Under the pieces are notes generated by a model, which saw nothing but the letters and a program-made list of their open reading frames with translations, had not been told where the DNA came from and searched no databases. DNA of 64,000 nucleotides from a candidate division WOR-3 bacterium (GTDB taxonomy: Bacteria; Hydrothermota; Tepidihabitantia; SM23-42): the NCBI GenBank assembly GCA_027026255.1, contig JALVOT010000017.1:177670-241669 (forward strand), in the 5' to 3' direction. The position numbers and the translations under genes were made by a program. Positions 22,914 to 54,542 of this stretch are shown here, piece by piece; the stretch's first letter is position 1, and each line of letters starts with the position of its first letter.

Positions 22914-22959
22914 TATATTATAATATTCAAATTTAAATAAATGTCAAGATGTAGAGGTT

Positions 22960-23364
22960 CTTACTCCTCTCCACTTTTTTCATTGTGCCTCCCGGATTAA
23001 TTGCAACGGTATTCTGGACAGAATAAATTTCCCTGAGATTATTAAACCAGGACGAAAAATACTCAACAACTTCGTTTTACTTTTTTATATTATTTTATTG
23101 GTCATTTGAAAAATTTCTCTACCATCTTTACTTGGTCCCATTTTCTCAGCGCGGACGGCATTTCCATTTTCTCAGCGCGGGCGGCGTTTCCATTTTTCTC
23201 AGCGCGGGCGGCGTTTCTCATTTTTCTCAGCGCGGGCGGCGTCCCCGCCGCCCGCTGGAGGTTTATCATTCCTGCAGCCCGCCAGGCGCCCTGCCTCGGG
23301 ACGGGACGCCCCCCGGCTATATTGTACTTACAAAAAGCCGGGACAAAAAGTGGAGGGAAATCAG
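22960..23364 (+). repeat. Repeat element copy A. It is full length and carries four 27-bp tandem units.
   Basis: Left terminal inverted repeat (TIR) CTTACTCCTCTCCACTTTTT, right TIR AAAAAGTGGAGGGAAATCAG. Internally, TTTTCTCAGCGCGGGCGGCGTTTCCAT-type units repeat four times and end in the hairpin GCGGGCGGC-gtcccc-GCCGCCCGC. Confidence 0.85.
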
Positions 23365-23523
23365 GTAGAGGTTTAAAACATTGCATCCATCCCAGGAAAA
23401 ATTTTTGAGGTGAAGAAGGATGTCTGTTCAGCAGAAATTATTCTAAAATAACTTCCTTGACTTTCCGATAAAATTTGCTAAACTAACTCACCAATTAACA
23501 ATAAAACTTTTAAAGGAGGTCTG

Positions 23524-31803: not shown

Positions 31804-31915
31804 CTGACTCCTCTCCACTTTTTGTCCTGGTTTTTTGTAAGCTATGTAGGTTACAATATAGCCGGGCGGCGTCTCGCCCCGAGGCGGGGACGCCGCCTTC
31901 GCTGAGAAAAATTGA
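31804..31915 (-). repeat. Repeat element copy F. It is a right-end stub in minus orientation.
   Basis: The reverse complement reads ...GCGGCGTCCCCGCCTCGGGGCGAGACGCC..CCGGCTATATTGTAACCTACATAGCTTACAAAAAACCAGGACAAAAAGTGGAGAGGAGTCAG. Confidence 0.75.
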
Positions 31916-35398: not shown

Positions 35399-35769
35399 TT
35401 AACTCCTCTCCATTTTTTTCATTGTGCCTCCCGGATTAATTGCAACGGTATTCTGGACAGAATAAACTTCTCTGAGATTATTAAACCAAGACGAAAAATA
35501 TTCAACAACTTCGTTTTACTTTGTATTTATTTGTCATTTGAAAAATTTCTCTACCATCTTCGCCCGGTTCCGTTTTTCTCAGCGTGGGCGGCGTCCCCGT
35601 TTTTTTCAGCGCGGGCGGCGTTTCCATTTTTTTCAGCGCGGGCGGCGTCCCCGCCGCCCGCTGGAGGTTTATCATTCTTACAGCCCGCCAGGCGCCCTGT
35701 CTCGGGGCGGGACGCCCCCGGCTATATTGTACTTACAAAAAACCGGGACAAAAAGTGGAGGAAAGTCAG
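35399..35769 (+). repeat. Repeat element copy B. It is full length and carries three tandem units.
   Basis: Left TIR ..AACTCCTCTCCATTTTTTT and right TIR AAAAAGTGGAGGAAAGTCAG. The internal sequence is about 90% identical to copy A. Confidence 0.85.
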
Positions 35770-35815
35770 CCTTATTATACCTTGACAACTAAAAAATTAT
35801 GAATAGAATCAGAAT

Positions 35816-40631: not shown

Positions 40632-40715
40632 TGCCGGGAAGGGGATTTGAACCCCTACACCCTTTCAGGCATTAGGTCCTGAACCTAACGCGTCTGCCAA
40701 TTCCGCCATCCCGGC
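40632..40715 (-). tRNA. tRNA-Leu (anticodon CAG).
   Basis: The reverse complement gives GCCGGGA-UG-GCGGAAUUGGCAGACGC-GUUAGG-UUCAGGA-CCUAA-long variable arm-AGGGG-UUCAAAU-CCCCU-UCCCGGC-A. Confidence 0.8.
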
Positions 40716-40867
40716 CTGGTCTATGATATACAATTATTAAAGGATGTCAAGTTTCACCATCTATCATTGGTTTTTAAAAATTACATTCTCAGTAAATTTA
40801 TGGCAATTCACTGACTTATAATTTCAGCCAAAGAAAAACGATTAGAAACCCTGCTTGCTTAAAATAA

Positions 40868-41086: not shown

Positions 41087-41150
41087 AAAGCCCTCCTTAT
41101 AAACTATAATATTCTAAAGAGAATTTTGTCTTTGTCAAGGGAGTTGTCCC

Positions 41151-41205
41151 CTGACTCCTCTCCACTTTTTATCTTGATTGTTTAAGAAATATGTAAGTTA
41201 CAGTG
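41151..41205 (-). repeat. Repeat element copy G. It is a short right-end stub in minus orientation.
   Basis: The reverse complement reads ...TGTAACTTACATATTTCTTAAACAATCAAGATAAAAAGTGGAGAGGAGTCAG. A further 16 nt separate this from TTGACA. Confidence 0.75.
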
Positions 41206-44675: not shown

Positions 44676-44946
44676 TCAACCTCCTTCACTTAAATCTAAA
44701 AATAATTATAATTAAATTTGGAAATAAGTCAATAATTTTTTGTAGCGGTAAAGTTCCGGATACTTCTCCTCAGTACCGCACCGCCTCCTCAATAAAACCA
44801 AACCGCCCCGCATTATCTCCCGACAGGCAGCCGGCTTATCCAGAATCCTCTCCCGCTCTTTCTTTATTCTGATAGATTATGTATTCACATACTGATTATA
44901 GCCAGAATCGAAAAACCATCAAACAAAATCAAACAAAAAAAATCCT

Positions 44947-45162
44947 GCTTCGCGCGGTTCAATTTTTACCAGTGCGGGCGGTATTTCCATTTTTCTCAGC
45001 GCGGGCGGCGTCCCCGCCGCCCGCTGGAAATTTGTCATCCTCAACTCGTTTCAGAATCTCCTGCAGCCCGCCAGGCGCCCTGCCTCGGGGCGGGACGCCC
45101 GCCGGCTATATTGTAACCTACACAGCTTACAAAAACCGGGACAAAAAGTGGAGAGGAATCAG
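44947..45162 (+). repeat. Repeat element copy C. It is the right half only, with a roughly 45-bp internal insertion that is shared with copy E.
   Basis: ...CAGTGCGGGCGGTATTTCCATTTTTCTCAGCGCGGGCGGCGTCCCCGCCGCCCGC...CCGGCTATATTGTAACCTACACAGCTTACAAAAACCGGGACAAAAAGTGGAGAGGAATCAG. Confidence 0.8.
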
Positions 45163-45208
45163 AAATTTAATCTATTGACTTTTCATAATTTTTTATTACA
45201 ATATCAGT

Positions 45209-46312
45209 ATGAAGATATGCGTTGTGGGTGGAGGCAGACAGGGCAGAGTGGCTGCCCAGGATTTGGCTGAATCCGGGTATCGGGTTACGGTCCTGGATAT
45301 AAATAAAAAGAATCTTAAAAATCTTTCACAACATAAAAATATTACCACCAGGGTTTTTACGGTCGAGAACCGAAAACAGTTTGTGAAACTCTTGAAAAAA
45401 TTTGACCTCATTGTCGGTGCTCTGCCGGCAAGATTGGGCAGGTATTTAATGGAATGTGCAATTGATGCAGGGATCGACCTTGTTGACCTATCCTATTTAC
45501 CGGAAGACCCTTTCCTGCTTGATAAAAAGGCAAAGGCGAAGAAGGTGCGTATCGTTCCTGATGCCGGATTCGCCCCTGGTCTCAGTAATATTATTGTTGG
45601 TAGATTCAATGAAGAGTTTGGGGGTCTGGATTATATTAAGATTATGGTCGGTGGATTACCGCAGAAACCGGTTCCGCCATTCAATTACTACATTACCTGG
45701 TCACCGGTGGATCTGATTGAGGAGTATACAAGAACAGCCCGTATTGTAAGGAATGATAAAATATTAAAGATCGAACCCTTAACCGGGATTGAGGAGTTCA
45801 AGATACCCCGGATTGGTCGGCTTGAAGCATTTTATACAGATGGCTTAAGAACGCTGCTTCGCACATTTAAAAAAACCAAAAATATGGAAGAAAAAACAAT
45901 TCGTTATACTGGTCATGCCCGGATTTTCAAAACCCTGATCGATATCGGTCTTTTTTCAGACAGAAAGATTAAAATTAATAGAAGCAACATCATACTTAAA
46001 AATTTTACGCTTGAATTTTTAAAAGAGGCGTTAACCCGGGGTGATGAAAAAGATATCTCCATCCTCAGAATTGAATTGAAAAAAGGAAGAAAAAGATGTC
46101 GGATTGAATGTATTGATTATTATGATACACATAAGAAGATAACATCAATGGCAAGACTCACCGCATATACCGGTTCAATTATTGCCCAGCATATCAAGGA
46201 ATATCCAAAATTTGGTGTTATCGCTCCAGAATACCTCGGTCAGAACCGGGATATCTGGGATAAAATCGAAACCGAACTCAAAAAACGAAGGATTAAATTA
46301 AGCTATAGATAA
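45209..46312 (+). CDS. Saccharopine dehydrogenase-family NAD(P)-binding oxidoreductase.
   Basis: 367-aa ORF with the N-terminal Rossmann motif MKICVVGGGRQGRVAA. A leaderless promoter TTGACT-16-TACAAT-6-ATG lies upstream. Confidence 0.65.
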   Translation: MKICVVGGGRQGRVAAQDLAESGYRVTVLDINKKNLKNLSQHKNITTRVFTVENRKQFVKLLKKFDLIVGALPARLGRYLMECAIDAGIDLVDLSYLPEDPFLLDKKAKAKKVRIVPDAGFAPGLSNIIVGRFNEEFGGLDYIKIMVGGLPQKPVPPFNYYITWSPVDLIEEYTRTARIVRNDKILKIEPLTGIEEFKIPRIGRLEAFYTDGLRTLLRTFKKTKNMEEKTIRYTGHARIFKTLIDIGLFSDRKIKINRSNIILKNFTLEFLKEALTRGDEKDISILRIELKKGRKRCRIECIDYYDTHKKITSMARLTAYTGSIIAQHIKEYPKFGVIAPEYLGQNRDIWDKIETELKKRRIKLSYR

Positions 46313-46574
46313 AAAACCCGCGGTCCCTGAAGATATTGAGGTTGAATGGTATTCAGAAAAAGGGATTCATACAAGGCCGAAGAGACTATGTATCAGGGGT
46401 ATCTGGTATGAGGTCTTCCAATATGAAAAGCGTATTGTTGAGGACAGAAAATCAAAAAAGAGACAGATAATTTTCTCCTGTCATATTGGCGACAACCTTA
46501 TTGTGGAGGTTAAGGTTGAATACAGATAATCCTCCGGTCATAAAACACTCCGGCAGGGTAGTATGTAAAAAAAT

Positions 46575-46857
46575 CAGATAACCGAGATTATTAAACTAAG
46601 ACGGAAAAATACTCAACAACTTCGTTTTACTTTTTTTATATTATTTTATTGGTTATTTGAAAAAATTCTCTACCATCTTCGCCCGGTTCAATTTTTCTCA
46701 GCGCTGACGGCGTCCCCTTTTTTCTCAGCGCGGGCGGCGTCCCCGCCGCCCGCTGGAGGTTTGTCATTCTTACAACCCGCCAGGCACCCTGCCTCGGGGC
46801 GAGACGCCCCCGGCTATATTGTACTTACAAAAAACCGGGATAAAAAGTGAAGCTGAA
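46575..46857 (+). repeat. Repeat element copy D. It lacks the left terminus and has two tandem units and a degenerate right end.
   Basis: GAGATTATTAAACTAAGACGGAAAAATACTCAACAACTTCGTTTTAC...GCGGGCGGCGTCCCCGCCGCCCGC...CCGGCTATATTGTACTTACAAAAAACCGGGATAAAAAGTGAAGCTGAA. Confidence 0.8.
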
Positions 46858-46906
46858 CCATCCCTTTCAACCTTGACATTCAATCTTTTCCAGATATTAT
46901 GTAGTT

Positions 46907-52406: not shown

Positions 52407-52714
52407 CACACTTACTGTGGGTCAAACCTCTTTTTATACTTATCAATTAATTATTAAATTCAAAGATTATCAGGTTATCTTCCACTTTTTGACTTCTCTT
52501 TCTGGATAAGAACAATCCACGATTCCGTATAAAAGATTGAATCGGGATGCCGGCTTAAAAATATGAAGAAGTCATAGAAAAGCGATTTTGAAATAAAACC
52601 ACACAAATCACAAAACCAAATAGGCTCGAATTCTTTGTCTGTAAACAGTTAACCGCTTTTAAAATTTTTAAATATATAATTGACAAATTTTAAAAAATTG
52701 TTATAATGAACAAT

Positions 52715-52790
52715 AGCGCCATCGTCTAGTCTGGCCCAGGACGTCGCCCTCTCAAGGCGAAGATCACGGGTTCAAATCCCGTTGGCGCTA
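52715..52790 (+). tRNA. tRNA-Glu (anticodon CUC).
   Basis: AGCGCCA-UC-GUCUAGUCUGGCCCAGGAC-G-UCGCC-CUCUCAA-GGCGA-AGAUC-ACGGG-UUCAAAU-CCCGU-UGGCGCU-A. Confidence 0.85.
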
Positions 52791-54138: not shown

Positions 54139-54156
54139 ATTACCGCTTATTCTCAG

Positions 54157-54496
54157 CTGATTCCTATCCACTTTTTTCATTATGCCTCCGGGATTAATTG
54201 CAACGGTATTCTGGACAGAATAAACTTCCCTGAGATTAGTAAAATAAGATGAAAAATACTCAACAACTTCGTTTTACTTTTTTTATATTATTATTGGTCA
54301 TTTGAAAAATTTCTCTACCATCTCCGCCCGGTTCAATTTTTTCTCAGCGCGGGCGGCGTCCCCGCCGCCCGCTGGAGGTTTGTCATCCTCAACTCGTTTC
54401 ATACTCGCCGGGCGCCCTGCCTCGGGGCGAGACGCCCCTCCGGCTATATTGTAACATAGTTTAAAAAAACCGGGACAAAAAGTGGAGAGAAGTCAG
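54157..54496 (+). repeat. Repeat element copy E. It is full length and carries one tandem unit.
   Basis: Left TIR CTGATTCCTATCCACTTTTT and right TIR AAAAAGTGGAGAGAAGTCAG. Sixteen nt downstream lies TTGATT-16-TATAAT-6-ATG of the pcrB-like gene. Confidence 0.85.
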
Positions 54497-54542
54497 TATT
54501 CTCAGCCCTTGATTTTTTTCCTTACTCAGGTATAATCAAGAT

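Follow-up and report, generated by a model that had tools for sequence, protein, structure and literature searches.

An IS4-family insertion sequence and its miniature derivatives with ends at a fixed distance upstream of -35 promoter elements

We examined 64,000 nucleotides of DNA from a candidate division WOR-3 bacterium (GenBank assembly GCA_027026255.1, contig JALVOT010000017.1, positions 177,670 to 241,669 of the forward strand); this whole stretch is called the window below. A motif, AAAAAGTGGAGAGGAGTCAG, recurs in it beside promoters, and a preliminary description of the DNA had proposed that it is a selected cis-regulatory site, phased with the -35 hexamer. In this report, we find that the motif is very probably the end of an insertion sequence (IS) of the IS4 family and IS10 subgroup, about 1.19 kb long, and of the miniature inverted-repeat transposable elements (MITEs) that go with it, which insert 12 bp upstream of the -35 element. 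The fixed spacing would then, in all likelihood, be the footprint of targeted transposition and not a binding site for a regulator, a reading that we draw from sequence comparison.

Repeat copies and promoters in the window

The spatial association first reported, an 11-mer (GTGGAGAGGAG) at a fixed 16 nt from a -35 hexamer, is borne out. The composite pattern GTGGAG-N5-TNAG-N12-TTGA[CT] (GTGGAGNNNNNTNAG-N12-TTGAY) has five matches in the window and none in 100 dinucleotide-preserving shuffles, and the 11-mer itself (at most one mismatch) occurs six times versus 0.48 expected. The composite matches are:

22943-22974, minus strand
35755-35786, plus strand
41134-41165, minus strand
45148-45179, plus strand
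54482-54513, plus strand

The motif belongs to a repeat of which the window holds seven copies or fragments (A to G). Copies A and E are complete: they start with CT, finish with AG, and carry imperfect terminal inverted repeats (TIRs) of 19-20 bp (CTGACTCCTCTCCACTTTTT) within perfect 9-bp target-site duplications (TSDs), and thus have the anatomy of a MITE. The motif is the 19-20 bp TIR of this 340-405 bp element. The other hallmarks of a MITE are present as well, in that the repeat is short and multicopy, shares its TIRs with a parental IS, and contains no transposase open reading frame (ORF). The copies and the promoters that they face are as follows, with IRL and IRR denoting the left and right inverted repeats:

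22960..23364 (+), copy A, complete, 405 bp; perfect 9-bp TSDs GTAGAGGTT at 22951-22959 and 23365-23373
Minus strand, promoter facing the IRR-type end of copy A; -35 22947-22942, -10 22925-22920, ATG 22913
31804..31915 (-), fragment F; TIR 31804-31822
35399..35769 (+), copy B, 371 bp; left TIR degenerate, TSD match 7/9
Promoter facing the right end of copy B; -35 35782-35787, -10 35804-35809, ATG 35816
41151..41202 (-), fragment G; TIR 41151-41169
Minus strand, promoter facing fragment G; -35 41138-41133, -10 TAGAAT 41116-41111, Shine-Dalgarno sequence, ATG 41086
44940..45162 (+), copy C, left-truncated and without a left TIR; left boundary approximate
45143..45162 (+), TIR of copy C, IRL-type end, AAAAAGTGGAGAGGAATCAG; homologous to the ends of full-length IS copies in loci L046 and L037
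45163..45171 (+), TSD position of copy C, AAATTTAAT, then a 3-nt gap, CTA; assigned from the pattern in copies A and E and in 15 further complete elements
45175..45202 (+), promoter at copy C; -35 TTGACT, 16-nt spacer, -10 TACAAT; gene for a saccharopine/lysine dehydrogenase-like protein
46584..46860 (+), copy D, both ends decayed, boundaries approximate; decayed TIR GTGAAGCTGAA
Promoter at copy D, 15 nt past the residual 11-mer; -35 46873-46878, -10 46895-46900, ATG 46907
54157..54496 (+), copy E, complete, 340 bp; perfect 9-bp TSDs TATTCTCAG at 54148-54156 and 54497-54505
Promoter facing the right end of copy E; -35 TTGATT 54509-54514, -10 54531-54536, ATG 54543

The site at copy C illustrates how the distance is composed. 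On the plus strand, the TIR (45143-45162) is followed by AAATTTAAT (45163-45171), CTA (45172-45174), TTGACT (45175-45180), a 16-nt spacer, TACAAT (45197-45202), ATCAGT and the ATG at 45209. The 16 nt between the 11-mer and the -35 hexamer are the 4-nt tip of the TIR (TCAG), the 9-bp TSD and 3 nt more. The intervening sequence, previously held to be unique to each copy and no part of the repeat, therefore has a defined make-up. It had also been supposed that a duplicated target site might account for the spacing and so undo the regulatory reading; it does so in part, being a component of the spacer, but it leaves the constant 3 bp between the TSD and TTGAC unexplained. The exceptional 15-nt spacing at copy D, where the hexamer lies one nucleotide nearer to the 11-mer (at 46847) than in the other copies, was seen again, together with the decay of that TIR. 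The 17-nt promoter spacer given for copy G depends on the choice of -10 element and becomes 16 nt with TAGAAT (41116-41111, minus strand) in that role. No -35 hexamer stands at this phase beside the promoter-distal ends of A, B and E, as expected if only one end per insertion can face a promoter. Copy A meets its promoter with the end derived from the 3' side of the transposase gene, and B, C and E meet theirs with the opposite end.

The parent insertion sequence and its transposase

A scan for the 20-mer in one genome per species returned many matches in candidate division WOR-3, Candidatus Stahlbacteria and unclassified metagenome-assembled genomes (MAGs), often at contig ends, as repeats would give. 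Matches in Clostridium, SAR116, Salinimicrobium and other genomes were without element features and were left out as chance or coding occurrences. Two full-length elements of about 1.19 kb with the same TIRs lie in WOR-3/Stahlbacteria-type loci:

L046:3655-4838
L037:103-1298

Each has a single ORF of 363-368 aa that fills the element without a frameshift. The 3' end of the L046 IS, with the region of the stop codon just inside the TIR, can be aligned with roughly the leftmost 70 bp of the window MITE, and the subterminal sequence of the MITE is homologous to both ends of that IS. The MITE is thus an internal-deletion derivative of an L046-type IS.

The transposase matches Pfam PF01609 (DDE_Tnp_1; E = 1.3e-15 and 3.6e-11). 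Against NCBIfam NF033591 ("IS4 family transposase"; cut-off 152 bits), the L046 copy scores 166.8 bits and the L037 copy 136.3, i.e. below the cut-off. The signature Y-(2)-R-(3)-E-(6)-K in region C1, by which the IS4 family is defined (PMC2266710), is present in the L046 transposase (YRRRMTIEEGFRDLK). Its residues Y264, R267, E271 and K278 are invariant in an alignment of 12 sequences; among 52 sequences, R267, E271 and K278 remain invariant and Y264 is conserved in at least 90%. The catalytic residues D109, D172 and E271 are invariant in the transposase alignments. The structural model (predicted local distance difference test score, pLDDT, 91.1) has Tn5 transposase (3ecp, 1muh) as its top fold matches in the PDB (E = 1.6e-11 to about 2e-11, TM 0.64); a PDB search by sequence alone gave no match, and the likeness to Tn5 came from the fold search. 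The element encodes this Tn5-like transposase only, with no accessory gene and no extra domain.

Among widespread elements, the nearest relative by tblastn is enterobacterial (L106, about 29% identity); its ends, CTGATGAATCCCCTAATGATTTT, we take to be those of IS10. The top plasmid matches in PLSDB carried no annotated feature. Members of the IS10 subgroup have 5'-CT ends, 9-bp direct repeats and lengths of 1200-1350 bp (PMC2266710 Table 1); the present elements have CTGA... ends and 9-bp TSDs, and at 1184-1257 bp some copies fall just below the lower limit.

The interior of the MITE holds one to four tandem copies of a 27-bp repeat, TTTTTCTCAGCGCGGGCGGCGTCCCCG, the number differing among MITE copies. 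It closes with a perfect GC hairpin, GCGGGCGGCG-TCCC-CGCCGCCCGC. An Rfam scan of 32 kb containing the MITEs found tRNAs only, and no family inside a MITE. The repeat tracts of the window are:

23141-23269
35547-35675
44964-45038
46666-46767
54312-54386

Position of the element ends relative to the -35 element

We gathered every TIR end (at most three mismatches) with at least 60 nt of flank from the WOR-3-type loci and the window, 82 ends altogether. TTGACA, with one mismatch allowed, lies at offset 12 in 43 of them, while any other offset between 0 and 44 has at most two (binomial p ~1e-73). About half of the ends is the maximum possible, because a single end per insertion faces a promoter. 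TTGAC is invariant at all 43 sites, and TAnnnT follows 15-18 nt further on at 40 of these. The base preceding TTGAC is C or A and the next one upstream is T or C. The nine positions of the TSD carry essentially no information (0.01-0.22 bits each); that of the target sits 3-8 bp beyond the TSD, on one side only.

Complete elements with 9-bp TSDs (0-2 mismatches) number 17 and measure 167-479 bp. In fifteen, TTGAC stands at +12 on a single side and not on the other; the remaining two carry TTGATT at +12 and TTGACA at +11, respectively. Both orientations of the element relative to the promoter occur.

One might suppose that insertion is random or weakly biased and that selection keeps copies at this position alone. 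Purifying selection must indeed remove most intragenic insertions, and some copies are old enough to be common to species-level MAGs: the same MITE insertion is present in two species-representative MAGs (L082:1206-1624 and L089:6734-7152, flanks 95.5% identical), so that some insertions are old and vertically inherited. Yet harmlessness would allow any intergenic position, and the ends do not spread over such positions but pile up at a single offset. Further, the same single-nucleotide rule holds in unrelated hosts, and the 3-bp gap stays constant while the length of the TSD varies (both below). We consider selection by itself an exceedingly improbable source of the phase.

Orthologous promoters without the element

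The contig L116, from a related organism, encodes an ortholog (67% identical) of the protein whose gene starts at 45209. The promoter of this ortholog reads TTGATT-16-TAAAAT-6-ATG and has no MITE. The next gene of L116 has the promoter TTGACA-16-TATTAT-GTAGTT-ATG, almost letter-identical to that of the window gene at copy D, again with no MITE; it lies 14 nt past the preceding stop codon, where the window has about 350 extra bases including copy D. In the pair L018/L065, L065 likewise keeps the orthologous promoter of L018 without the element. These empty sites (L116, L065) mean that the promoter is not part of the repeat and can exist in the absence of the motif. As to polymorphic empty sites for the window genome itself, the contigs with identical proteins either represent the same scaffold or break at the MITE.

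The empty sites bear on two other explanations. The first is that the promoter belongs to the repeat as a mobile cassette, with the spacing internal to it. This would account for the recurrence of -35 and -10 hexamers beside the repeat, but the TIR is separated from the -35 by a TSD, the copies bear no relation to one another in the sequence that flanks and separates the hexamers, and the orthologous empty sites keep the promoter and even its spacer sequence. We regard the cassette as already refuted, its probability being close to nil.

The second is the proposal with which the preliminary description led, that the 20-mer, spanning about -68 to -49, is a selected cis-regulatory site and the signature of a regulon, where an activator would bind or which would serve as an extended upstream (UP) element. 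Its position relative to promoters is indeed fixed, and the transposase surely binds the sequence, so that secondary effects on transcription are conceivable. However, the motif forms the TIR of a transposon that has TSDs and transposase-encoding parents; it stands equally at promoter-distal ends; and orthologous promoters are conserved as units in its absence (L065, L116). Further, the downstream genes are unrelated (a dehydrogenase, a PcrB-like protein and small ORFs here; lacI-family, ABC-transporter and cytochrome P460 genes in Thermus). There are none of the positions at a 10-11 bp period (+10 or +21) that an activator working from one face of the helix would tolerate, and the region is not A/T-rich like a UP element, since -38 to -46 is the random TSD and the TIR is rich in purines and G. 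Thus, the regulatory proposal is not supported, and we consider it very unlikely; transposase bound at about -47 to -66 may still have a regulatory side effect. The alternative named beside it, site-specific insertion, is strongly supported and extends far beyond this genome.

Distribution of the rule among related elements

More distant relatives of the element show the same arrangement. Three of them, with transposases 29-50% identical to that of WOR-3, have perfect TSDs:

L094, transposase 43% identical; TSD AAATTTTAA, CTA, TTGACA, then 16 nt and TATAAT
L096, transposase 50% identical; TSD CTGAGTTAG, CCC, TTGACT
L098, high-GC contig, transposase 29% identical; TSD CCCCGCAAA, ACC, TTGACC

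On plasmids of Thermus thermophilus, copies of two ISTth2-type elements, the annotated ISTth2 among them, obey the same rule of TSD, 3 bp and TTGAC, with a -10 element 16-17 nt further on:

L107; GAAGGCCCC, CCC, TTGACA, 16 nt, TATAGT; LacI-family regulator on the promoter-facing flank
L109; AAGCCCTGGG, GTA, TTGACA; sugar ABC transporter substrate-binding protein directly downstream
L110; GGGCCTGGCC, GGG, TTGACA; arsenate reductase (azurin) small subunit on the promoter-facing flank
L111; GTCCTCCAG, GGC, TTGACG, 17 nt, TTAATA; cytochrome P460 family protein directly downstream

A metagenome scan with the transposase alignment gave 80 loci, in 65 of which both TIRs could be placed, yielding 109 distinct flanks. 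TTGAC lies at offset 12 in 29 of the 109 (at most two elsewhere; p ~5e-47), and TTG alone in 45 (at most six at other offsets). TAnnnT follows at 15-19 nt in 34 of 43 scorable flanks with TTG at 12 versus 9 of 60 other flanks (p = 5e-11). The promoter-facing flank is about as often on one side of the transposase gene as on the other. Stop-free reading frames run through 21 of 31 versus 21 of 46 metagenomic junctions, a comparison that is uninformative as high-GC DNA has few stop codons. The rule holds for metagenomic and Thermus transposases that are 28-45% identical, and the exact offset recurs in more than 70 independent insertions across phyla. Members of the clade were found in WOR-3/Stahlbacteria, in Thermus and in diverse metagenomic contigs, high-GC ones included. 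It is reasonably probable that homing on the -35 element of sigma-70 promoters, precise to the nucleotide, arose in a widespread, ISTth2-like clade of IS10-subgroup transposases.

Several observations weigh against targeted insertion or limit its reach. Fragment F of the window breaks the rule, with TTGATA at +9 and no -35 at +12. About one quarter of the metagenomic IS copies with both flanks have no TTG at +12 on either side. Some full-length or other copies (L046, L091/092, L016, L042) have non-matching TSDs or promoters on both flanks; those with a consensus promoter at +12 on each side and non-matching TSDs are:

L046:3655-4838
L091/L092
L016:38-292
L042:176-651

It looks as if these double-promoter copies came from recombination between copies at different promoters, or from chimeric assembly; if the former, promoter-gene units would be shuffled. 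The promoters themselves, with sigma-70-type hexamers, 16-18 bp spacing and a position before gene starts, are consensus predictions. Finally, the occupancy figures come from loci picked for containing the TIR and hence are not genome-wide rates.

The same ISTth2 insertion is present in L108 (T. thermophilus HB27 pTT27) and L111 (pHC11). The HB27 flank diverges inside the -35 hexamer (GGCT then GGGCTTGCC... versus GGCTTGACGGGG) and is followed by a further annotated transposase gene; in HB27, this promoter has apparently been hit by a different IS as well.

Mechanism and recognition of the site

The site of the cut is fixed relative to the core of the sigma-70-type -35 element, 5'-TTGAC-3': the nearer break lies 3 bp on its upstream side and the farther one usually 9 bp beyond the nearer. 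We propose that the transposase makes its usual staggered cut of about 9 bp here. After repair, the end of the element would be followed by the duplicated 9 bp and a 3-bp gap before the -35, with promoter and gene left intact and the element at rest in a harmless place. From its family membership, the enzyme would act as a dimer in cut-and-paste transposition like those of Tn5 and Tn10, with target contacts reaching several bp past the cuts. In the 398 kb examined there are 908 TTGAC, 130 of them promoter-like, and purifying selection would presumably clear copies that landed beside intragenic TTGAC; this step is needed whichever way the site is found.

As to how it is found, we favour, with a little better than even confidence, that the transposase itself reads TTGAC preceded by [T/C][C/A]. 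Direct reading is favoured because of four observations. The 3-bp gap to TTGAC is kept with TSDs of 10 bp (L109, L110, L101) and of 8 bp (L127). One insertion (L101/L103) adjoins GTG GTT GAC; once the empty site is reconstructed, the reading frame runs through it unbroken, and there is no -10 in the vicinity. The first and second positions before TTGAC vary less in occupied promoters than in unoccupied ones (p = 0.01 and 0.003). Lastly, the element offers a transposase and nothing else.

A possible but rather unlikely alternative is that the insertion is equally targeted but that the transposase is guided by the RNA polymerase holoenzyme sitting on the promoter, docking on it (at sigma region 4, the beta-flap or the C-terminal domain of the alpha subunit, alpha-CTD) or on the DNA bend that it induces, and does not read TTGAC itself. 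A proper -10 element is present at 40 of 43 WOR-3 sites and 34 of 43 metagenomic ones, and non-consensus yet plausible -35 elements (TTGCAT, TTGAAA, TTGTCA, TTGCAG) stand at the same offset. The cuts would fall at about -38 and -47, a region that, in promoter complexes generally, is bent by polymerase and contacted by the alpha-CTD. Docking sits poorly, however, with the L101/L103 insertion beside a TTGAC inside an ORF, with a ruler exact to the base pair across -35/-10 spacers of 16-18 nt and across phyla with divergent sigma factors, with the invariance of TTGAC at 43 of 43 WOR-3 sites, and with a transposase that adds no domain to the Tn5-like architecture. Against direct reading, in turn, it must be said that 79-93% of the targeted sites look like bona fide promoters and that the -35 variants TTGCAT, TTGAAA and TTGTCA are also used, both of which fit recognition by sigma or RNA polymerase equally well, and that the proposed readout step draws on one in-gene insertion and modest flank statistics.

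We also considered a "pseudo-end", in which the TTGAC of the -35 mimics the CTGAC of the TIR tip. The two share TGAC only and the positions beyond it are unlike the TIR, and the idea was set aside.

The element at L127:45-1240 has inverted TTGACA boxes on both of its sides and an apparent 8-bp duplication (TGTCAA-CGC-CGGGCGGG-CCG-TTGACA), a symmetric target with a 3-bp gap on each side.

Comparison with known elements

The element shares with IS10/Tn10 a DDE transposase encoded by a single ORF with the YREK signature (about 29% identity with L106), and also the CTGA of the TIR tip (in relatives, the xATCCCC block as well), and 9-bp TSDs and CT ends (PMC2266710 Table 1). The transposase here is shorter (363-368 aa) and the element measures 1.18-1.26 kb. 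The two also differ in their targets. The hotspot consensus of IS10, NGCTNAGCN, is symmetric and lies inside the 9 bp, whereas here the 9 bp are uninformative and the target is set by TTGAC, an asymmetric sequence that lies 3 bp beyond the duplication. The TSD positions here show no such symmetric consensus.

ISTth2 belongs to the IS4 family and IS10 subgroup and has 9-bp direct repeats (PMC6352166 Table 2); its copies are annotated as "IS4-like element ISTth2 family transposase". Its transposase is 28-29% identical to that of WOR-3 and its copies likewise have TTGAC 3 bp beyond the TSD, but it lives in another phylum at another GC content and its TIR reads CTGAGyTCTCATCAC. We saw no MITE derivatives of ISTth2 in the Thermus records examined.

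Other mobile elements home to safe havens: yeast Ty3 goes to the start sites of RNA polymerase III (Pol III), Tn7 to attTn7, and elements of the IS1397/ISPpu type into REP sequences. The present element resembles them in using a landmark at a non-essential position, with insertions that avoid coding DNA, and resembles Ty3 in that the landmark is part of a transcription initiation signal and is met with nucleotide precision. Ty3 relies on a protein tether (TFIIIB) and Tn7 on a target selector (TnsD), whereas here there is no accessory gene and the enzymes and landmarks are others. Correia elements, RUP and Nezha are short, non-autonomous elements with TIRs and TSDs that are mobilised by a parent IS and abundant in intergenic DNA, and the WOR-3 MITE is like them in its descent from a parent IS. 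They differ in having di- or tetranucleotide targets or none and variable distances to promoters, and some carry promoters; the WOR-3 MITE has no outward promoter of its own and takes one fixed position beside that of its host.

We found no report of IS insertion targeted to the -35 element or to promoters in the open-access literature, and absence there is not proof of novelty. The word "promoter" is never used in the IS4-family review (PMC2266710) or the Thermus mobilome paper (PMC6352166), and the latter was the sole relevant mention of ISTth2 found in that literature. The kind of element, an IS4-family IS with its MITEs, is known. Its target rule appears to be undescribed, and its novelty appears to lie in a determinant that is asymmetric, outside the duplication and coincident with the -35 box.

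Implications

If these conclusions hold, the element would be the counterpart, among bacterial DDE transposons, of Ty3 homing to Pol III start sites. Should the transposase read the -35 itself, it would represent a second, independent protein solution for recognising TTGAC; should it dock on sigma or RNA polymerase, it would be the first case of a bacterial transposase that the transcription machinery directs to its target. Either would show how an element can spread in compact bacterial genomes without killing genes, with the -35 box as a landing beacon, and such a beacon would be why a MITE stands immediately upstream of 6 of about 15 consensus promoters in the 64-kb window. Each insertion would swap the sequence upstream of about -47, and could sever promoters from activator or UP sites. 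Recombination between copies would relocate intact promoter-gene units. In practical terms, the elements could flag promoters in uncultured phyla that lack transcription data, and the transposase could serve as a promoter-tagging tool. The host of ISTth2, T. thermophilus, is genetically tractable, and the mechanism would be directly testable there.

Gene starts and a short conserved frame

In at least six window genes, the ATG lies exactly 6 nt past a consensus -10, with TTGACA 16 nt upstream of the latter and no Shine-Dalgarno sequence. The genes with this 6-nt arrangement are:

22913 (-)
35249 (-)
35816 (+)
45209 (+)
46907 (+)
54543 (+)

At 45209, the mRNA is predicted to be leaderless, and the L116 ortholog retains the arrangement. 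Transcription would start at the A of the ATG in such genes, and leaderless mRNAs seem common in this WOR-3-type genome. Two tRNA genes identified with Rfam, at 52680-52790 (+) and 40632-40750 (-), begin 7-8 nt after a consensus -10. Their transcripts would begin at or beside the mature 5' end, with little or no leader for RNase P.

Directly past the stop codon of the dehydrogenase-like gene, the window (about 46330-46530) and L116 (2310-2500) share a short reading frame whose protein sequence is conserved (...WYEVFQYEKRIVEDRKSKK...). It is not among the listed ORFs of at least 80 aa.

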